A stretch of DNA of 17,256 bases, from the IMG/VR virus record IMGVR_UViG_2778261160_000003, positions 1 through 17,256 of that record. One strand, 5' to 3'. The translations under genes and the position numbers were made by a program. This document shows positions 1-16,322 of the stretch, in pieces. The notes under the pieces are model-generated. The model did not search any database. It had not been told where the DNA came from and worked only from the letters and a program-made list of their open reading frames with translations. The first letter of the stretch is position 1. Every line of letters starts with the position of its first letter. The DNA is from a virus (lineage: Duplodnaviria > Heunggongvirae > Uroviricota > Caudoviricetes).

Positions 1-1053
1 TTACGGGGTAATGCCAACCGCTGCCGCCACTTTGTCGCCACTTGGCAGCGTTGCCAGAGGATTGAAACGGAGCGCCGTTTCCAGATGATCCGGTGCCAGA
101 TGTGCGTAACGCATAGTCATTTTTATATCGTGGTGTCCGAGAATTTTTTGTAAGGCCAGAATGTTTCCACCCGACATCATGAAGTGCGCCGCAAACGTAT
201 GGCGCAGAACGTGTGTGAGTTGACCGCGAGGGAGCACGATAGACGTTTTTTCCATCACGGATAAAAATTGAAAATAGCAGTCTGTGAAGAAATTGAACCC
301 ATCAAGCGCCATGATCTCTTCGTAAAGCTCTTTACTGATAGGGATGCTTCTGTTTTTCTTCCCCTTCGTTCGTACAAAGGTAATTCGGTATTTGGTCACC
401 TGTGAACGAGTAAGATTTACGGCTTCTCGCCAGCGTGCGCCTGTGCTTAAGCATATCTTAACTACCAGTGCCAGAATTGGGTCCTGACGTTTGCAATCAG
501 CCAGTAATTCAACAATCTGCTCATGGGTAAGCCATGCCATCTCTTTTTCTGCGATGGTGAATTTTCGCATGTTCTCCAGTGGGTTCGGATACGACCATTC
601 GCCCAGGCGGGATAGTTCGCTAAAAACACTACTTAGATAGCTTTGCTCCAGGTTAATGGTGACCGGGCTTGCTCCTTTCTTCCATTTCTCGCTGAAGTAG
701 ATCTCACCTGTCAGGCGTTTATCTCGATAGTGGGCAAACATTTTAGAGGTTAGATCAGTTGCAAGGGGATTGCCCAGAGCGTCAACCATCAGCAGCAATT
801 TGTCATAGACATGCTGCCCAGCAGTCAGTGATTTACCATGTAGTTTGAACCATAGCTCAACCACGTCTTTCAGTGTTCGACGATCCACTGATTCACCTAG
901 CCAGGGCTTTGCTTCGGTTTCTTCCATCGTGTGACGCTCAAAAGCCAGTGCTTCGCCTTTGGTGGCGAATTGTTTACGCACACGACGCCCACTACGTCCG
1001 GCGGGGTAACATTCGCAAAGCCATTTTCCTGTGGTGAGTTTTCGTACAGCCAT
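1..1053 (-). CDS. int: Prophage tyrosine integrase (P2/186-like)
   Basis: 350-codon minus-strand ORF; ATG is revcomp of 1051-1053, preceded by GGAGGG. N-terminus MAVRKLTTG..GRRVRKQFATKGEALAFE and boxes CLSTGARWREA / HVLRHTFA / MRYAHL resemble P2 Int as I recall it. Stop codon is bases 1-3. The ORF track extends to 1131 but has no RBS there. Confidence 0.9.
   Translation of the reverse strand: MAVRKLTTGKWLCECYPAGRSGRRVRKQFATKGEALAFERHTMEETEAKPWLGESVDRRTLKDVVELWFKLHGKSLTAGQHVYDKLLLMVDALGNPLATDLTSKMFAHYRDKRLTGEIYFSEKWKKGASPVTINLEQSYLSSVFSELSRLGEWSYPNPLENMRKFTIAEKEMAWLTHEQIVELLADCKRQDPILALVVKICLSTGARWREAVNLTRSQVTKYRITFVRTKGKKNRSIPISKELYEEIMALDGFNFFTDCYFQFLSVMEKTSIVLPRGQLTHVLRHTFAAHFMMSGGNILALQKILGHHDIKMTMRYAHLAPDHLETALRFNPLATLPSGDKVAAAVGITP
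19..40. repeat. Candidate attL core, 22-bp direct repeat CGCTGCCGCCACTTTGTCGCCA
   Basis: Matches 14402-14423 at 21 of 22 positions in direct orientation (single C/T difference). Lies in the last codons of int. Confidence 0.55.
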
Positions 1054-1078
1054 AAAAAATGCCCTCCAATAGAGAGCA

Positions 1079-1106
1079 TTTTTACTGTATGTATAACCAG
1101 TGTCAA
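1079..1106 (-). promoter_or_regulatory. Putative int promoter with a LexA-box-like CTG-N10-CAG in the spacer
   Basis: Read on the minus strand: TTGACA (revcomp of 1101-1106), 16-17 nt spacer, TAAAAA(T). The spacer contains CTGGTTATACATACAG (plus strand CTGTATGTATAACCAG, 1085-1100). It is 30-50 bp upstream of the int ATG. Confidence 0.35.
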
Positions 1107-1241
1107 TGTATGAAATCCTGCGACCATACATCTCACTGAAGCCATAATGAAGTAGGCTATTCTTTTTGCTATGTGATCATGTAACTTTTGCGGTTAACCT
1201 GTGGCTCATTTTTATTTTAGGCGCAGATATAAAAGCAAAAG

Positions 1242-1433
1242 TTATCGTGAGTTTTTAGTACAGATTTTTTTGGATTTACTAATAGTTCCATCATTGCAAA
1301 CGAATTTGCCATCAGAGGTACAGTGAGAAACACCTCCCTTTTTCCCTGAGCAGGGATAATTTCTAGCATAGGTAGCTAGTGGGTTTAATAACAAAGAACA
1401 TGACAAAACCACAAAAAATACCTTACCAAGCAT
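1242..1433 (-). CDS. Small hypothetical protein with predicted signal peptide and four cysteines
   Basis: 63-codon ORF whose ATG is preceded by GGGAGGAAATT. Hydrophobic N-terminus [20 protein letters not shown], then a Lys/Cys-containing tail. AT-rich. Sits between cI and int on the same strand. Confidence 0.45.
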
Positions 1434-1448
1434 AATTTCCTCCCGGTA

Positions 1449-2018
1449 CTATTTAACATACTTGACTGTTAAACTTATAATTTTACCAATTATTTCAATG
1501 TCTTCTATCTTACATTCGAAGGCTCTGTTTCCACCCTCGACGAAGATTCTTCCACCGGGTAAACGAGTAATGTCACGGATCGTTATTTCGCCATCAATAC
1601 TTATTACCCATTTACCATCACGTATATCATCAAATTCCTTATCACAAATAAATTCAGAATTATTATCTGTGATTACAAAAAGATTCTTGAATGCCGACGG
1701 TAGAAATTCTCTATCGAAAATATAAAAACCGTCTTCACACAAGGCCCCATCAGATAATACATATTTAGCAACTTCCATAGTATTTGTATTACCTGAAGTT
1801 TGCTTTGAACCATGCCCGGTTGTGAGCCAATTAAGCGAGGTGCCTGTTTCAAGGGCGCACTGGATTACCCATTCTGCTGGGAATGAGTCACGCATGTAGC
1901 GTGTGGCGAGTGTACTTTTAGAGATTCCTAAATGATCGCACAACGCCTGTCGAGTCTTGAATCCATAAGCTTCTACCATGCGCTCTATGGCGCCTCGTCC
2001 GCCTTTCTCCAAATTCAT
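1449..2018 (-). CDS. cI: CI-type immunity repressor (phage 186 CI-like)
   Basis: 189 codons from the ATG at revcomp 2016-2018, with GGAG about 5 nt upstream; the ORF track extends to a GTG at 2024. N-terminal HTH-like segment EAYGFKTRQALCDHLGISKSTLATRY. Size and position (between int and the divergent early operon) match 186 CI from memory. Confidence 0.75.
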   Translation of the reverse strand: MNLEKGGRGAIERMVEAYGFKTRQALCDHLGISKSTLATRYMRDSFPAEWVIQCALETGTSLNWLTTGHGSKQTSGNTNTMEVAKYVLSDGALCEDGFYIFDREFLPSAFKNLFVITDNNSEFICDKEFDDIRDGKWVISIDGEITIRDITRLPGGRIFVEGGNRAFECKIEDIEIIGKIISLTVKYVK

Positions 2019-2365: not shown

Positions 2366-2397
2366 TTCGATTCTGAAATACATCAGAGGCATTGACC

Positions 2398-2907
2398 ATG
2401 TTTGATTACCAAGTTTCCAAACATCCACATTTTGATGAAGCCTGTCGTGCATTTGCACTGCGCCACAATCTGGTGCAACTGGCAGAACGTGCAGGCATGA
2501 ATGTGCAGATTCTGCGGAACAAGCTGAACCCAGCTCAGCCTCATTTATTAACCGCACCAGAAATCTGGCTGCTTACCGATCTGACTGAAGATTCAACGCT
2601 GGTAGATGGTTTTCTGGCACAGATTCATTGTCTGCCATGTGTACCGATTAATGAGGTGGCAAAAGAGAAACTGCCACATTACGTCATGAGTGCAACCGCA
2701 GAGATCGGGCGTGTTGCTGCAGGTACGGTGTCTGGCGATGTAAAAACCTGTGCCGGTCGTCGTGATGCTATCAGCAGCATTAACTCTGTAACACGACTGA
2801 TGGCGCTGGCGGCTGTTTCATTGCAGGCCCGTTTACAGGCTAATCCTGCGATGGCGAGTGCAGTTGATACCGTGACTGGCCTCGGTGCTTCATTTGGTTT
2901 GCTGTGA
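2398..2907 (+). CDS. cII: CII-type lysogeny-establishment regulator (phage 186 CII-like)
   Basis: 169 codons from ATG 2398, with AGAGG 8 nt upstream; the ORF track starts at TTG 2392. N-terminus [19 protein letters not shown] and length agree with 186 CII as I recall it. Confidence 0.7.
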
Positions 2908-7305: not shown

Positions 7306-7325
7306 TACTGTAAATATAAACAGTG
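7306..7325 (+). promoter_or_regulatory. LexA (SOS) box TACTGTAAATATAAACAGTG
   Basis: Perfect CTGT-N8-ACAG with an A/T-rich spacer at 7308-7323, about 40 bp upstream of the ORF starting at 7366. Confidence 0.6.
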
Positions 7326-7365
7326 GTTATGTATACAGTATTGCTTTGGTGTCATAGGAGGAAAG

Positions 7366-7554
7366 ATGCAGGACTATTTTTTGGAGTCTTTGAAGCTCCA
7401 GCGCATTGATTTTTTTCTTAAGCTTGTAGCGGCTAGTGAGTGTAGTGATGAAGAGAAGGGGCTGGCCCTGCAGTGGGTTTCTGAACTGACAGATGAACTC
7501 ATGGCAAAAATCAGAACCCACGAATACAACCGCTCAATGGATGTCATCAGCTGA
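7366..7554 (+). CDS. Small hypothetical protein, first gene of the putative SOS-controlled operon (Tum-position antirepressor candidate)
   Basis: 62 codons, strong RBS AGGAGG 4 nt before the ATG, downstream of the LexA box. In phage 186 the equivalent LexA-controlled position holds the tum antirepressor; sequence similarity not verified. Confidence 0.5.
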   Translation: MQDYFLESLKLQRIDFFLKLVAASECSDEEKGLALQWVSELTDELMAKIRTHEYNRSMDVIS

Positions 7555-7564
7555 GGTGACTTTT

Positions 7565-7798
7565 ATGCGCATTGAAATAATGATCGATAAAGAGCAAAAG
7601 ATTAGCCAGTCTACACTGGACGCCCTTGAATCCGAGCTTTACCGCAATCTGCGCCCCCTGTATCCCAAAACGGTAATTCGTATCCGCAAAGGTAGCTCTA
7701 ACGGTGTGGAACTGACCGGACTGCAACTGGACGAAGAAAGAAAACAAGTGATGAAAATTATGCAGAAGGTGTGGGAAGACGACAGCTGGCTGCATTAA
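7565..7798 (+). CDS. dinI: DinI-family protein
   Basis: 77 codons from ATG 7565, with GAGGTG 5 nt upstream. Begins MRIEIMIDKEQ and ends QKVWEDDSWLH, mirroring E. coli DinI (MRIEVTIAK ... ETWESADDW) in pattern and size. Confidence 0.7.
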   Translation: MRIEIMIDKEQKISQSTLDALESELYRNLRPLYPKTVIRIRKGSSNGVELTGLQLDEERKQVMKIMQKVWEDDSWLH

Positions 7799-8212: not shown

Positions 8213-9295
8213 ATGATAAACGTTACAAACGAAATGCTCATTGATGTTGTCAGTGATGCTCTTACCGGGAAGAGGGAAAGTCTCCTCATGCGGTTGCGGA
8301 TTATGGCAAAAAAACTAAAAAAAGAATCTCCTGAATTAGCGGGTAAATTAGAAGATTTACTTATTAATACGGGTGGCGCAATTGCAGTCGAAAGGGCTAA
8401 TCCAGTTGTTCCTAAAATAACACCTGTTGATGCGGATACAAGACAAAAGCTGCTAGTTGAAACATATCCTGTGGTCATTGATGTTGAACCTGTTTGGCCA
8501 ACAAAAACTGATGTTCAACTGAATCGATTTGTGGCTGAGTGGGAAATGAAAGAACGCCTTTATAAAGAAGGGTTGCATCCCTCCAAATCTCTTCTTATGG
8601 GAGGACCACCCGGTGTGGGGAAGACTTTGGCTGCAAAGTGGCTCGCTTTTAAACTCGATATGCCATTGTTAACATTAGATCTCGCAAGTGTAATGAGTAG
8701 CTACTTGGGGAAAACGGGTAATAATATTAAGGCAGTCCTCAATTATGCTTCGTCATTCCCTTGTGTACTGCTTCTTGACGAATTTGATGCGATTGCTAAA
8801 AAAAGGGATGATGCAACAGATGTTGGAGAACTAAAAAGATTAGTTACAGTATTATTGCAAGCAATTGATGAATGGCCAAATACGTCTGTTCTTATAGCAG
8901 CAACTAACCATGCGGAGCTGCTTGATCCTGCTGCATGGAGAAGATTCGATCGAGTTATTGATTTTGAATATCCAACACAAGACCTAATGAGAAGATATCT
9001 CTGTTCTAAAAATATTGGAGATAGCTTATCGTACTATATTGCTACAAAACTCGAAAAAGTTTCATATGCAGTTCTTGAGAGAGCTATAAATCAAGCTAAA
9101 AGAAATGCCATTATAGAAGATATTCCTTTAAGTTCAGCTTTAATTGATGAGTTGTTAGATGGCGTGTCACTTGATGATGTTATAAAAAACATGTCAAACA
9201 ACAATGTATCACAAAGAAAAATCGCTTTAGATTTGGGGATTTCAAGGTCACAAGTACGTAAGGTTTTGACGGTTGAGGATGAAGACAATGAATGA
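8213..9295 (+). CDS. AAA+ ATPase with C-terminal HTH-like tail (cargo gene 1)
   Basis: 360 codons. Walker A GPPGVGKT (Lys codon 8621-8623), Walker B VLLLDEFD (8777-8782), sensor-1 IAATNH, second-region-of-homology-like AAWRRFDRV. C-terminal SQRKIALDLGISRSQVRKVL resembles a helix-turn-helix. AT-rich. Confidence 0.85.
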   Translation: MINVTNEMLIDVVSDALTGKRESLLMRLRIMAKKLKKESPELAGKLEDLLINTGGAIAVERANPVVPKITPVDADTRQKLLVETYPVVIDVEPVWPTKTDVQLNRFVAEWEMKERLYKEGLHPSKSLLMGGPPGVGKTLAAKWLAFKLDMPLLTLDLASVMSSYLGKTGNNIKAVLNYASSFPCVLLLDEFDAIAKKRDDATDVGELKRLVTVLLQAIDEWPNTSVLIAATNHAELLDPAAWRRFDRVIDFEYPTQDLMRRYLCSKNIGDSLSYYIATKLEKVSYAVLERAINQAKRNAIIEDIPLSSALIDELLDGVSLDDVIKNMSNNNVSQRKIALDLGISRSQVRKVLTVEDEDNE

Positions 9296-11480
9296 TAAAA
9301 ATATGCTTCTTGGCTATGGTGAAACACTAACTAACCCTGTTAAACTTAACAGAGGTGGAGGTGAAAAGAATAAACCTTACTCTTATTCAGAAAATAAACC
9401 AGTGATATCTGCTCAACTGGAAGAGTTGATTGAGGAAATTAATACCCTTCCATTGTTAGCAATGCCTGAAGGTAAGGCTGTAGCAAAATTTGTTTTGCAT
9501 CCGGCATTCTTAGCAAAAAGTTATTTTCCAGTAAGTCTTTTTGAGCGATTTTCCCTAGAAAGCATAGGCAGTAAGGCTGTAAAAGTAAAACCTAGAAAAG
9601 ATATTAAAAAAAGAGGGCGAAAAGAGGAATACACTACAGCGTGTATTTATGTTTCTGGCAAAAAAGAAAGTTTTCAATCATTCTTAGACTCTGTAAATCA
9701 AGATACCCTAACGAAAGGGCAGCAAAATGATTTTGTCACCTTAGAAAATATTTCAATACTGGAAGTTTCAGATAAAGTAAAAACGATTAATAGCAATGAA
9801 GTTATGAGTATTGAGGTCGCCTTACATACTCCTGATACAAGTTCCTCTATTGTCGATAGTTTTGAAGTTTTTGCTTCGCAAAATGGTGCTGTTATAGATA
9901 AGGCAAGAAGTATAAAAGTTAAGGGGCTAACCTTTATGCCTATTAAGGCTAGTAAAGATGTAGCTTTAAAAGTTGCAGAGTTTTCATTTCTCAGGACTTT
10001 GAGAGAACTTCCTGAATTAAGGCTAAGTGAGCCTGTTATATCACGTTCTGTGATTCAAACATCTAACCTTAGTTTACCATCTGAAGGAGCGGTAAACCCA
10101 CACATAAAGGTTGCCATATTCGATGGTGGATTGGGGATCGATGATTTCAATCCTTGGGTAACAGAGTACACTTTCAACGGTAATGCTAGTACTAATGCAA
10201 AACTTCTTTCTCATGGACAGGATGTCACCTCTACTGTGTTATTTGGTGTTCTTGGCTCTGAAACGGAAAAATTAAGTGTTCCTTATTGTAATATTGACCA
10301 TTATCGTGTACTGGATTCCAATGTTAATAACTCAGATGTCGATCTTTTTGACGTTCTGATCCGTATTAAAAGTGTATTAGAACAAAAAAAATATGATTAT
10401 ATCAATCTGAGCTTAGGACCTAGATTACCTGTTGATGACGATGACGTGCATGTGTGGACCTCAACTCTTGAGGAGATACTTGCATCAGGAGAAACACTTT
10501 GTACTGTCGCGGTTGGAAATGATGGTCAGCTGCCTGCCAAGTTAAATCGAATTCAACCACCTGCTGATTTAGTTAATGGTCTGTCAGTAGGTGCAGCAAC
10601 CTCTTTATCTGATAGTTGGGAAAGATGTTCTTACAGTTGTATTGGTCCTGGACGAAGCCCTGGCTTTGTGAAGCCTGATGGAGTTGCATTTGGAGGACAT
10701 TCTGATGAGCCATTCCAGGTATACAGCCCTATGGTTAATGGTCTTGCCCGCACTGCGGGGACTAGCTTTTCTGCTCCATTAGTCCTGAGGCAAGCAATCG
10801 CGTTAAGTGCTTCTCTAAATTACAACATTACACCACTTACGGCTAAAGCTCTGCTTATACATCATGCGGAGAGCAATAATATCAATCGTGCTGAAGTTGG
10901 TTGGGGACGATTTCCTCATGATCTTAGTGAAGTAATATTTTGTGATGATGATGAAGTTAAAGTTATATATCAAGGTACTTTAAAACCATCACAACACATG
11001 CGAGCACCTATTCCGTTTCCAGATGTACCTATGCGTGGATGTGTAAATTTAAGAGCGACATTCTGTTTTTCCAGTCCTGTTGATGCGGAACATCCTTTGA
11101 ATTATACAAGAAGCGGTCTAGAAGTAACCATGAGAAAAGGTGTTTCAGATAGTTCCGGGTTAACGTTTCCTCTTTTTAATCTAAAAAATGTTTATGCAGA
11201 TGAAAATGAGCAACGTGTTGATGCACATAAATGGGAGACTACGTTAAGAAGTGAACACAAATTTAAACCGAATGAGCTGACAAACCCATGCTTTGATATT
11301 ATCTACTATGGTAGAGACTGTGGTATGCCTATTGATGTTGACGAGTTAGAAGAACTACCATATGTTCTTGTTGTGACTTTATCTGCTGAAGAAATGCCGG
11401 ATTTATATAACCTAATTAGGCAGAAATATCAAACCTTACAGCCTATCCAAGTTCAACAGCAAATTATGTTACGTACTTAA
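9288..11480 (+). CDS. Subtilisin-like serine protease, S8 family, no signal peptide (cargo gene 2)
   Basis: 730 codons from ATG 9288; alternative ATG at 9279, ORF track starts at TTG 9273. Start overlaps the ATPase stop as ATGAATGA. Catalytic motifs in canonical order: Asp in VAIFDGG (10122-10124), His in SHGQDV (10212-10214), Asn in AVGNDG (10518-10520), Ser in GTSFSAP (10764-10766). N-terminus is hydrophilic. Confidence 0.85.
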   Translation: MNDKNMLLGYGETLTNPVKLNRGGGEKNKPYSYSENKPVISAQLEELIEEINTLPLLAMPEGKAVAKFVLHPAFLAKSYFPVSLFERFSLESIGSKAVKVKPRKDIKKRGRKEEYTTACIYVSGKKESFQSFLDSVNQDTLTKGQQNDFVTLENISILEVSDKVKTINSNEVMSIEVALHTPDTSSSIVDSFEVFASQNGAVIDKARSIKVKGLTFMPIKASKDVALKVAEFSFLRTLRELPELRLSEPVISRSVIQTSNLSLPSEGAVNPHIKVAIFDGGLGIDDFNPWVTEYTFNGNASTNAKLLSHGQDVTSTVLFGVLGSETEKLSVPYCNIDHYRVLDSNVNNSDVDLFDVLIRIKSVLEQKKYDYINLSLGPRLPVDDDDVHVWTSTLEEILASGETLCTVAVGNDGQLPAKLNRIQPPADLVNGLSVGAATSLSDSWERCSYSCIGPGRSPGFVKPDGVAFGGHSDEPFQVYSPMVNGLARTAGTSFSAPLVLRQAIALSASLNYNITPLTAKALLIHHAESNNINRAEVGWGRFPHDLSEVIFCDDDEVKVIYQGTLKPSQHMRAPIPFPDVPMRGCVNLRATFCFSSPVDAEHPLNYTRSGLEVTMRKGVSDSSGLTFPLFNLKNVYADENEQRVDAHKWETTLRSEHKFKPNELTNPCFDIIYYGRDCGMPIDVDELEELPYVLVVTLSAEEMPDLYNLIRQKYQTLQPIQVQQQIMLRT

Positions 11481-11518: not shown

Positions 11519-12133
11519 CTATGTTGATTGTGGGTCATCGTTTATTAAGTTATATTTTTCAAAATGGATAATATTAATTCCTAACCATTCATTAAATTCC
11601 TGTAATCGTTTTTGTAAAGGCATTAATTCATTTCGAACAAACACTCGACTCGCCTTCTCTACATCTCCAAATCCTCCAACATTACTTGGCATAATCCCCA
11701 TCATTTGCGGCGGCACACGGTGTGCCGCCATCATGTCGTCCCGGCTCACGTTCTTGATATTCAGAAACTCATCCTTCGCCGCGACTTCTGACAACGGGAT
11801 GATCTGAAGCCCGTCCTTTTTGCCGTTAGGCGAGTACATAAACAGGTTGCGGAAGTTGCCAGGGCCTTTGGCGCTTTTCATCGCATTGCGGAGGTTGTTC
11901 ACATCCTCCTGGTTCTGCGCGGCATCGGTCATGTACATGATGAAGCCTGCATGACTGCCGTTAATATAATACTTCCGGCGGAACAGCGTGGCGGACTCGT
12001 TGAGCAGGGCTGACGGAATGGCAGAAAGATAACCTGGCAGGCCGTAGATCTCCTGGTTGATGTCAGGTTCCATCAGATGAAAAATGCTGCCTTTCGTGAA
12101 CTGATACGGCTGGGTTGTCATACCGTATTGCAC
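11519..12133 (-). pseudogene. Q: Portal protein (P2 Q-like) C-terminal fragment
   Basis: 204-codon minus-strand ORF with portal-like sequence, in the position and orientation of P2 Q. Far shorter than an intact portal; its 5' part is replaced by tail tube sequence on the opposite strand. Confidence 0.6.
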
Positions 12134-12915: not shown

Positions 12916-13049
12916 CGGTTGACGATCTGGTGGCAGATATCGCCACCATCTTTCACTGGCCGCCATCCGTTACTGACGTTATGCCGCTGACCGAAGTGCT
13001 GGAATGGCGGTATAAAGCGATTCAGAGAAGCGGGGCCAACGATGAGTGA
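12613..13049 (+). CDS. E+E' fusion product via programmed -1 ribosomal frameshift
   Basis: Slippery heptamer T TTT TTG at 12870-12876 near the end of E. The -1 frame is open from 12876 to a TGA at 13047-13049 (checked codon by codon) and overlaps the T start codon. Confidence 0.6.
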
Positions 13050-13971
13050 TAATAACCTGCGCCTGCAGGTCATTCTTAATGCGGTTGACAAACTCACCCG
13101 CCCATTCCGTGCTGCACAGGCCAGTTCGAAAGAGCTGGCTGGCGCAATCAGAAACTCCCGTGACGCATTAAAGCAACTCAATCAGGCGGGTAACAGCCTG
13201 GAAAAATTTCGCAAGCTGCAGGCCGATAACAAGAAGTTAGGCGACAGGCTGAACTATGCCAGACAGAAGGCTAATTTGCTTAGCTCTGAGCTGGAGGCGA
13301 TGGAACAACCATCACAAAGGCATCTTGTGGCTTTAGGTCGGCAAACGCTGGCAGTCCAACGCCTGGAAGAACAACAAAAATATTTGCAGAAGCAAACGGC
13401 TCTTGTGCGTGCAGAACTGTACCGGGCGGGAATTTCTGCGAAAGATGATGCGGGAGCAACTGCCCGTTTAGCCCGTGAAACATCACGTTATAACCAGGAA
13501 CTTTCGAAACAAGAGGCGCGGCTGAAGCGACTGGGGGAAGCTCAGCGCAGGATGAATGCGGCGCGTGCCAGTTATGCCCGTTCGCTGGAGGTGCGTGATC
13601 GTATTGCAGGTGCCGGAGCCACCACCACGGCTGCAGGGCTGGCAATGGGCGCACCAGTGATGGCGGCAGTAAAAAGCTATACCAGCATGGAAGATGCCAT
13701 GAAAGGTGTGGCAAAGCAGGTCAATGGTCTGCGTGACGATAATGGCAACCGCACCGCGCGTTTTTACGAAATGCAGGATGCCATCAAGGCTGCCAGCGAA
13801 CAGTTGCCGATGGAAAACGGTGCTGTGGACTTTGCTGCACTGGTTGAAGGTGGTGCGCGTATGAACGTCGCAAACCCTGACGACAGCTGGGAAGACCAGA
13901 AACGTGACCTGCTGGCCTTCGCCAGTACGGCGGCAAAGGCGGCAAATGCCTGTGAAGGTCAGTGGTTTTAA
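13042..13971 (+). pseudogene. T: Tail tape measure protein (P2 gpT-like), truncated N-terminal portion
   Basis: 309-codon ORF starting MSDNNLRLQVILNAVDKL with coiled-coil-like Gln/Ala/Arg-rich sequence. Far shorter than an intact tape measure; its 3' end runs into a D-like fragment in another frame. Confidence 0.6.
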
Positions 13972-14092: not shown

Positions 14093-14182
14093 TTCTTCGC
14101 AATGGAGAACTTTTAAGTTTGCAAAATGGAATAATACGGTATCATTATTGTGAATGTAGCAAAAATGGGGAGAACTCGAAAA

Positions 14183-14401
14183 ATGATGATTTGCCCACTG
14201 TGTGGAAGTGCCGCCCATACTCGCAGCAGTTTTCAGGTATCTTCATTGACCAAAGAGCGTTACAACCAGTGCCAGAACATTAACTGCAGCCATACTTTTG
14301 TTACTCATGAAACTTTTGTTCGTTCGATTGCAACGCCTAAAGAGTCAAATCCGGTTCAGCCGCATCCAATGAAATCTGGACAGGTGGCGCTCTCTCTTTG
14401 A
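14183..14401 (+). CDS. ogr: Late-gene transcriptional activator, Ogr/Delta zinc-finger family
   Basis: 72 codons from ATG 14183; the ORF track starts at 14150. MMICPLCGSAAHTRSS ... KERYNQCQNINCSHTF closely matches P2 Ogr (MFHCPLCQHAAHARTS ... KERYHQCQNVNCSATF) from memory. Confidence 0.85.
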   Translation: MMICPLCGSAAHTRSSFQVSSLTKERYNQCQNINCSHTFVTHETFVRSIATPKESNPVQPHPMKSGQVALSL

Positions 14402-14423: not shown

Positions 14424-14481
14424 TCGTTAAAAAACAGTGCTTCTAACATCATGATTTTAAACGGTATAAATTTCAGGCAAC

Positions 14482-14524
14482 AAAAAACCCATCAACCTTG
14501 AACCGAAATGGCGGGGTTGATGGG
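14482..14524 (-). terminator. Putative ybjL rho-independent terminator
   Basis: Inverted repeat CCCATCAACC (14488-14497) / GGTTGATGGG (14515-14524) with a T-run on the minus strand (plus strand CAAAAAA at 14481-14487). The 17-nt loop is larger than typical. Confidence 0.4.
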
Positions 14525-14636
14525 CTCCACAAAATGGGGACATCAAAGAAAAGCAGTGGCATTAATTAAGACTGATGCCCTGCGGAAAAGTTCTGCGGTT
14601 GTGCAAAAAAATTTCATTTTCAGGGCAACTTCAGTT

Positions 14637-16322
14637 TTATCCTAATCCTGGCCATACCATGACGATGATTGTCCCTGCCAGCGTCAGCAGGACGTTGGCG
14701 ATTGCGTAGGTGCCCGCATAGCCCAGCGCAGGGATGTTACTGCGAGCTGTATCACTGATGATCTCCATTGCCGGCGCGCAGGTGCGTGCGCCCATCATTG
14801 CGCCGAACAACAGTGCGCGGTTCATTCGCAATACATAAGCACCGAACAAGAAACAGATAACCACGGGCACAAGACTGACAATTAATCCGGCAATCAACAT
14901 CTGACCGCCAATCGCGCCCAGGCCGTTATTAATACCGCTACCGGCGCTCAGACCAACGCCTGCCATAAACACCATCAAGCCGAACTCTTTCACCATGCTT
15001 AATGCACCTTGCGGAATGTAACCGAAGGTCGGGTGGTTAGCACGCATAAAGCCCAGCATAATTCCGGCGAATAACAACCCGGCAGCGTTCCCCATGCCGA
15101 AACTGAATGTGCTGAACTGGAAGGTGATCATCCCGATCATCAGCCCAATAACAAAGAAGGCGCAAAATGCCAGCAGGTCAGTGACCTGGCTGTGAATCGA
15201 GATAAAGCCGATGCGATCGGCGATGGTTTTTACGCGACGGGCATCACCGCTGACTTGTAAAACGTCACCTTTGTTAAGCACGACGTTGTCATCTATCGGC
15301 ATCTCAATCTGGCTACGAATGACGCGGTTAAGGAAGCAACCGTGATCGGTCAACTTCAGTTGTGCGAGACGTTTACCTACAGCGTTATGGTTTTTAACGA
15401 CCACTTCTTCAGTGACGATACGCATGTCGAGAAGGTCACGATCGAAAACTTCTTTACCGTTACGGAAGCTGGGATCGAGTCGGGCATGGGCGTCGGGATA
15501 GCCTACCAACGCTATTTCATCGCCCATTTGTAGCACGGCATCACCGTCTGGATTTGCCAGAATCCCGTTACGTCGAATACGTTCAATGTAGCAGCCGGTT
15601 TGTCGATAAATACCCAGTTCACGCAGATTTTTGCCGTCGGTCCAGGCCACCAGCTCCGGGCCGACGCGATAGGCGCGGATCACCGGTAAATAAACCTTAC
15701 GGTTGGCATCAGTGTCCAGGCCACGTTCGCGGGCGATTTGCTGGGCGCTGGTCTGTAAGTCCTGATGCTGCAATTTCGGCAAGTAACGCGCACCAACAAT
15801 CAAACTCACCAGACCGATTAAATAGGTTAAGGCATACCCGAGGCTCAGATTATCCAGTGCCAGTGAGAGCTGCCTGCTTTCCATGCCGGAATGACGCAGT
15901 GTATCGCCAGCACCGACCAGAACCGGTGTCGACGTCATAGAGCCTGCTAACATACCGGCCGTCAGGCCAATATCCCAGCCAAACAGCTTACCTAACCCTA
16001 AGGCGATCACCAGCGCACTGCCAACCATCACCAGTGCTAACATTAGGTAATTTTTCCCATCGCGAAAAAAAATGGAAAAAAAGTTCGGTCCGGCTTCGAC
16101 CCCGACGCAGAAAATAAACAGCATAAAGCCAAGATTAAGCGCATCGGTGTTAATGCTGAAATGTTGTTGGCCTAATAACAGCGATACGACTAAAACGCCA
16201 ATGGAATTACCCAGTTGGATCGAACCAAGTCGTAACTTTCCGAGACATAGCCCAAGCGCGAGGACCACAAATAATAACAGAATGTAATTCCCATTTAACA
16301 ATTCGGCGACGTTTATATTCAC
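14637..16322 (-). CDS. ybjL: Putative transport protein YbjL (AAE-family transporter)
   Basis: 561 codons; sequence [33 protein letters not shown]... recognised as E. coli YbjL. Multiple hydrophobic segments and central soluble domains. Confidence 0.9.

Follow-up and report, generated by a model that had tools for sequence, protein, structure and literature searches.

In the P2/186 family, int is generally held to be transcribed by read-through from the repressor operon. Outside lambda, the regulation of integrases is poorly known (PMC2951348). Neither an int promoter nor LexA or SOS is mentioned in a comparative study of P2-like regulatory regions (PMC3448106). Control of a P2/186-family int by LexA was not found described in the full-text literature, a corpus that most subscription journals lie outside, nor specifically in PMC3448106, PMC7708051, PMC2951348, PMC4553209 or PMC3108266.

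LexA repression of an integrase promoter is established for integrons. At intI promoters, overlapping LexA boxes bind LexA in EMSA, and derepression is 6.5- to 9.3-fold (PMC3108266). The locus described here resembles integron PintI1 and Vibrio intIA in that a tyrosine-recombinase gene has a putative promoter of its own, with an E. coli-type LexA box placed on the core elements. The box is conserved across many elements in both cases, and recombination, here by prediction, is tied to the SOS response (PMC3108266). The recombinase here, however, is a P2/186-family phage integrase, a class left out of that survey (PMC3108266). The integron box mainly overlaps the -10, whereas here it fills the spacer and is joined by a putative phage activator site and a leader hairpin.

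Other systems share features with this locus. Lambda pI is a dedicated int promoter from which the lysogeny activator makes Int apart from the neighbouring operon (PMC2951348, PMC7708051). Lambda CII is unrelated to 186 CII, though, there is no LexA operator at pI, and CII action at our locus is deduced from the sequence. In KplE1, too, the integrase gene (intS) is separate from the excisionase gene and is expressed from a tightly controlled promoter of its own, but that promoter overlaps attL, is autoregulated by IntS/TorI and has no SOS link (PMC2951348). The p95-tum unit of 186 is a LexA-operated promoter in the same phage family, with a homologue at 7306-7340 of the DNA studied here (PMC7708051); p95 controls the antirepressor, not int.

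The sequence-only reading of this DNA had proposed that int has its own DNA-damage-responsive promoter, separate from read-through from the cI promoter, and that this is not the arrangement of P2 or 186. The two precedents agree with the latter point. The int gene of 186 overlaps the cI stop codon (GenBank annotation) and has neither a LexA box nor a promoter of its own. P2 also has no separate int promoter, and its 115-bp C-int gap contains no LexA-like site (best score 1.9 bits).

The prophage and its early region

The window (the whole stretch of 17,256 nucleotides analysed here) starts at the int stop codon and contains the early region of a 186-type prophage. The gene order is int, a 63-aa YdcA-family ORF, cI, apl/cox, cII, fil, a DksA-like gene, dam and the replication gene A. 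On the 3' side of gene A, a LexA-box promoter is followed by a 62-aa ORF and a DinI-like gene, in the position of tum in 186. The features needed below are as follows.

1-1053, minus strand: int, P2/186-family tyrosine integrase, 350 aa (Pfam Int_N and Phage_integrase; phrog_1)
1242-1433, minus strand: YdcA-family cargo ORF, 63 aa, between cI and int (phrog_6000; RefSeq product name)
1449-2018, minus strand: 186-type cI repressor (Pfam Phage_CI_repr and Phage_CI_C; RefSeq CDS of 570 nt)
2392-2907, plus strand: cII, 186-type activator (Pfam Phage_CP76, PF06892, 1e-41)
7306-7340, plus strand: two overlapping LexA boxes at the tum-position promoter (7306-7325, 23.95 bits; 7321-7340, 15.25 bits)
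7366-7554 and 7566-7798, plus strand: tum-position genes, the 62-aa ORF (phrog_698, function not assigned) and the DinI-like ORF
about 14180-14401: ogr-like gene, ahead of the RybB sRNA

An identical integrase gene in RefSeq also has 350 aa, which agrees with an int ATG at 1053. In E. coli, the identical locus adjoins rcdA/ybjJ. An intact RybB sRNA lies at 14479-14557 on the minus strand (Rfam), and a minus-strand ORF of 561 aa at 14637-16322 presumably corresponds to the host gene ybjL, which it resembles. The late genes are reduced to fragments, namely the portal C-terminus (11519-12133), head closure, tail and tape measure (13042-13971). Because the late genes exist only as fragments and RybB is intact, the element is a prophage that is defective, spans about 14.4 kb and is bounded by rcdA and rybB. 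The window copy thus sits in a decayed prophage, and the int control region may not be used here. The accessory region past the tum position carries, at 8213-11480, the anti-phage defence pair IetA (AAA ATPase) and IetS (S8 subtilase), with PADLOC values of 7e-84 and 2e-48.

A predicted int promoter and its probable LexA operator

The control elements upstream of int, and the CII site of the phage's own pE promoter, are listed here in the direction of int transcription.

2398-2424, minus strand: pE CII site of the window phage, ATGTTTG-N13-CAAACAT, in the same position as the annotated site in 186
1106-1131, minus strand: inverted repeat ATGTATG-N12-CATACAT, a putative activator site of the 186-CII type, assigned by resemblance to the annotated 186 CII site
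1101-1106, minus strand: predicted -35 hexamer TTGACA, consensus (promoter scan)
1083-1102, minus strand: predicted LexA operator 20-mer CACTGGTTATACATACAGTA, which fills the promoter spacer (weight matrix, 23.9 bits)
1085-1100, minus strand: its core CTG-N10-CAG, a 16-bp palindrome with an A/T-rich centre, CTGGTTATACATACAG
1078-1083, minus strand: predicted -10 hexamer AAAAAT, spacer of 17 bp (promoter scan)
1055-1083, minus strand: predicted leader hairpin with a 13-bp stem (5' arm 1083-1071, loop 1070-1068, 3' arm 1067-1055)

The minus-strand TTGACA, the CTG-N10-CAG spacer with its A/T-rich centre and the following TAAAAA(T) are present as first described, and the promoter elements lie 25-53 bp upstream of the int ATG (1053), close to where the sequence-only reading had placed them. 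That reading took TAAAAA (1084-1079, spacer 16 bp) as the -10, which is an alternative to AAAAAT. The combination TTGACA/17/AAAAAT gives 10/12 consensus matches in the promoter scan, and a single T separates CTGGTTATACATACAG (1100-1085) from AAAAAT (1083-1078). A Shine-Dalgarno (SD) sequence, GGAGGG, is found at 1067-1062. No promoter was found by the scan on the opposite strand at this region.

Loose motif counts are uninformative on their own. There are 10 matches to CTG-N10-CAG in the window against 4.05 expected, and 5 promoter-like sigma-70 hexamer pairs against 5.7 expected. A LexA position weight matrix and a comparative analysis were therefore used in their place. The matrix was built from 18 published E. 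coli operators (PMC3009722), and the annotated LexA site of 186 p95 served as positive control (27.1 bits). It gave CACTGGTTATACATACAGTA a score of 23.9 bits, equal to that of the prophage's own tum-promoter box; the best unrelated site in the 17-kb window reached 8.2. In a leave-one-out comparison, the int box outscored 13 of the 18 known operators, which span 3.5-27.0 bits. Its Lewis-style heterology index was 4.37, with known operators between 0.3 and 8.5. A search with the consensus 20-mer at up to 3 mismatches returned the tum box only and missed the int site, which has 4 mismatches. It had been doubted whether LexA would bind a site with a CCAG half-site. This doubt is unfounded, because CCAG occurs in 7 of the 18 published operators (recN, dinI, ruvA, uvrD, cho, uvrB and dinB).

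The tum position forms a second LexA node. Two overlapping LexA boxes are an arrangement familiar from colicin operators. The second of the two tum boxes, CAGTGGTTATGTATACAGTA, is closely similar to the int box. 186 has one Tum protein with a DinI-like C-terminus, whereas in the window this is split into the 62-aa ORF and the DinI-like ORF. Among the matches listed in the viral contig scan described below, strong LexA sites were present both at int and just past gene A in 17 of the 21 contigs that reach far enough.

Conservation of the box, the CII-type repeat and the leader hairpin

We retrieved 77 loci with the Int protein from a collection holding one genome per species. In 40 of about 70-77 genome loci, the best LexA match (11.8-27.3 bits) lay 47-54 bp upstream of the int start. 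These 40 loci, all from Enterobacterales, range from Escherichia (100% Int identity) to Rahnella, Pantoea, Pectobacterium, Brenneria, Mixta, Serratia and Yersinia (about 55-75%), and include a subgroup with weaker boxes of 11.8-17.8 bits. Matches of at least 12 bits numbered 39 in the 21-bp band upstream of int versus 10 in the roughly 510,000 other positions of the 77 loci. When the loci were aligned on the box, CTG and ACAG proved near-invariant; variation was seen in the eight central bases, in the flanks and in the leader. The box lies between predicted -35 and -10 hexamers that are both conserved in the 40 loci: the related loci have TTGAC, TTTACA or TTGAA at the -35 position, and a hexamer of the TAAAAT/TAAATT type directly follows the box in 40/40. 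In the box-less loci among the 77, a cI-like ORF ends 0-27 bp before int, as in 186. The box-bearing loci have at least 65 bp upstream of int, and the genes there are very varied.

Viral contigs were scanned with the exact pattern ACATTGA-N2/3-CTG-N10-CAGT, which gave at least 120 matches. At least 58 of them were followed by an Int homologue (47-100% identity) whose start lay no more than 100 nt away. Among the matches listed, all 58 int-linked sites scored at least 16 bits, with 37 distinct 20-mers, and most of the 62 matches without int scored below 10 bits. The int-linked sites therefore match LexA beyond the positions fixed by the pattern. The high-scoring matches without int, L109 and L137, were considered as counter-examples and rejected, as they are prophage dinI genes. 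Upstream of these dinI-like genes, ACATTGA is followed by tandem LexA boxes of 27-29 bits, the same -35/box junction in a different context.

Within E. coli, the 91-bp cassette was found in 666 of 5,426 complete genomes, mostly at 95% identity or more, E. coli B included. Similarity in the int module often stops at window positions 1111-1117, just past the -35. The same prophage type occupies the same rcdA-rybB locus in E. coli B-DidR (L203, NZ_CP115968, 3995-4096), and the E. coli B cassette shows two base differences, none in regulatory elements. The same regulatory elements are present in BL21 and REL606, and the integrase of the B strains is WP_000290930. For Klebsiella phage 4LV2017 (L079, KY271398, 102-1212), int was deposited with a start placed 24 codons too far downstream; just upstream of that annotated start are the conserved ATG, the hairpin, the LexA box (21.7 bits) and the CII-type repeat.

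A box kept at a fixed distance from int, down to an Int identity of 47-55%, argues for function. Such a palindrome could in principle serve as an operator for CI, Apl or Int of the phage, or it could be a copy of the tum operator that has no function, and in either case only look like a LexA site. The close likeness to CAGTGGTTATGTATACAGTA makes a shared origin by recombination conceivable. A neutral copy, however, would not have lasted over the distances just given. The box persists in phages with CI proteins 31-100% identical to that of the window, and also where no cI adjoins; its conserved positions are those of the host LexA motif, and its variable positions are those that vary among chromosomal sites. 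We regard both forms of this explanation as extremely improbable. A phage-repressor operator in particular was rejected, since the box is kept across immunity types and at loci without a nearby cI. LexA binding to the int promoter, with repression and induction, is the likely reading of these sequence patterns.

Two conserved neighbours of the box had been missed by the sequence-only reading, and as read from the comparisons they change the mechanism: a putative CII-type site and a hairpin predicted to sequester the SD. For the former, the reference is the site ATGTTTG-N13-CAAACAT annotated at 186 pE in GenBank (NC_001317). The pattern ATGTWTG-N11-14-CAWACAT occurs in the window only at the int repeat and at pE, with 0.00 expected. 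Relative to the 186 site, the int repeat has a symmetric T-to-A change in both half-sites and is 1 bp shorter. Its right arm abuts the -35, the last T being common to both. A repeat of this type lies 77-85 bp upstream of int in most box-bearing loci, several of which have the exact pE half-sites, and in 53 of 58 int-linked viral cassettes among the matches listed. All 32 repeat-bearing loci with the switch region in reach encode a 186-type CII, nearly all with their own pE site, and no P2-type C repressor was found in these 32. The cII product is a candidate for the protein that recognizes the repeat, and CII action at this site is plausible on these grounds. A second CII-type repeat, ATGTATG-N13-CATACAA, is present at the ogr promoter of Rahnella phages (L030, 2575-2601; also L026-L028, L032, L035 and L076), where CII may also control this late-gene activator.

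The predicted int promoter and pE both combine 7-bp inverted half-sites (ATGTTTG/CAAACAT at pE) with a following repressor operator, which is CI FR at pE and the predicted LexA box here. They differ in the spacing (N13 at pE, N12 here), in that the repressor here is a host protein, and in the geometry. At pE, a weak -35 seems to be flanked by the half-sites, and the -10 seems to follow the right arm by about 10 bp, an arrangement not seen at int. The int repeat lies wholly upstream of a consensus -35, about 10 bp (roughly one helical turn) farther from the -10 than at pE. A consensus -35 is also unlike typical activator-dependent promoters. The label of a pE-type promoter was thus rejected for int, which carries only the CII-type site.

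These comparisons bear on a rival view, in which the cassette is a CII-dependent establishment promoter analogous to lambda pI, with pE-like geometry, a -10 at 1095-1090 (TATACA, within the A/T-rich middle of the palindrome) and a start near 1083. The hairpin would then be on all transcripts, and LexA would be a secondary brake. Half-sites identical to those of pE speak for it, as do the position of the pE -10, which judging from the sequence and the annotated CI FR site appears about 10 bp past the right arm, and the -10-like hexamers in the centres of the LexA boxes. On the other hand, the CTGTTCAAACATACAG subgroup has no usable -10 inside the box and yet keeps TTAAAT/TAAATT after it, and a consensus or near-consensus -35 is conserved right after the right arm. 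Moreover, a promoter that is off without CII needs no strong LexA operator. We consider this view unlikely.

The second neighbour is the leader hairpin. Its 3' arm includes the SD GGAGGG (1067-1062) and runs into a U-run (UUUUUU), and the window hairpin has a minimum free energy of -14.5 kcal/mol (z -6.3). The transcription start was assumed to be 7 nt past the -10, at about 1071. Folding indicated that an RNA from this start lacks the 5' arm and is unstructured. The hairpin folds in 38 of the 40 loci, with 27 distinct stem sequences and a mean z of -4.8, and the U-run is kept in about half of the related loci. Over the 40 loci, the mean leader energy was -11.8 kcal/mol for read-through RNA versus -1.5 kcal/mol for promoter-initiated RNA. 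When 22 leaders were aligned with MAFFT, RNAalifold predicted no shared fold, as the hairpins are out of register, and so the leaders were folded sequence by sequence. Rfam has no family for the leader, RybB being its sole match in the window, and a terminator scan of the window did not flag the hairpin. By its predicted fold, it looks like an intrinsic terminator that would hide the SD in read-through RNA. These patterns suggest that RNA arriving from upstream is silenced by the hairpin, and that RNA begun at the int promoter is spared.

A different possibility is that LexA does bind, while int is expressed mainly by read-through from pL/pE via cI and the cargo gene, with the LexA site being a roadblock or controlling another transcript. 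186 expresses int in this way, and the scan detected no intrinsic terminator between the cargo ORF and the cassette. Against this, a hairpin with a U-run right before the ATG is predicted to sequester the SD in just such read-through RNA, the -35 and -10 are conserved together with the box, and the scan found no promoter on the opposite strand. The cassette also persists at loci that have a clear terminator ahead of it and lack an upstream cI operon. In the Rahnella phages, int lies behind D and ogr and shares their orientation, past that terminator and far from cI, and the cassette is still present; it therefore belongs to int and not to the cI operon. Expression mainly by read-through is, in our judgement, highly unlikely. 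The earlier proposal that int has a promoter-like element of its own has thus held up: the -35 and -10 travel with the box, and the cassette is retained even where cI is far off. Overall, the original observation is confirmed, and its interpretation is supported by the comparisons and should be extended to a three-part cassette.

A proposed int cassette and the cargo between cI and int

Taken from the sequence comparisons above, the reading that we think probable is that the int control region is a portable cassette, repressed by LexA, activated by CII and insulated from upstream transcription. The segment 1053-1131 on the minus strand would be a stand-alone unit for the expression of int. As long as a lysogen is undamaged, LexA at the sigma-70 promoter would bar RNA polymerase and silence int. 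When DNA damage sets off the RecA-stimulated cleavage of LexA, the int promoter and the tum promoter (7306) would be freed together, and Int would be made alongside the antirepressor, which would switch on Apl, the excisionase. By analogy with 186, Apl and CII would follow the inactivation of CI (PMC7708051). During the establishment of lysogeny, CII at the upstream site would drive int, in the manner of lambda CII at pI. With a strong and widely conserved LexA site at int, the integration and excision of the prophage appear to be coupled directly to SOS.

For the leader, the -10 and the bases after it would form the 5' arm of the hairpin, and the ribosome-binding site would form the 3' arm. 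RNA that enters from the cargo gene and cI would either be terminated or have a hidden SD, and RNA begun at the int promoter (+1 near 1071) would be free of the 5' arm and open to translation. This insulator role of the hairpin, together with the start site, is plausible from the folding. In a healthy cell that has just been infected, a LexA-occupied operator should hinder CII-driven transcription of int as well. Int for integration might then come from incomplete repression, from CII competing with LexA or from leakage past the hairpin.

In this int clade, the DNA between cI and int forms a hypervariable site for cargo. The cargo there includes PD-Lambda-1 (L003), HEPN (L005), ASCH (L009), KAP NTPase/PDC-S20 (L011) and AbiU/AIPR (L018), and the junction looks like a hotspot of defence genes expressed from the lysogenic promoter. 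We tentatively propose, as an idea that may well prove wrong, that a large 186-like clade carries a three-part int cassette with LexA and CII inputs and a terminator-hairpin shield, and that this cassette allows the hotspot of defence-gene insertion between cI and int. With the -10 and the initial transcribed region as the 5' arm, only promoter-born transcripts would escape termination and expose the ribosome site. Such insulation would let constitutively expressed defence genes insert at the cI-int junction without deregulating the integrase.

If this is true, widespread enterobacterial prophages put both the antirepressor and the integrase under direct LexA control, and the CII activator may be reused at a second promoter. 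Phage integrases would join the SOS-controlled recombinases, which are so far known from integrons. The build-up of cargo and defence genes between cI and int would be explained, and models of the induction and excision of 186-type prophages would change.
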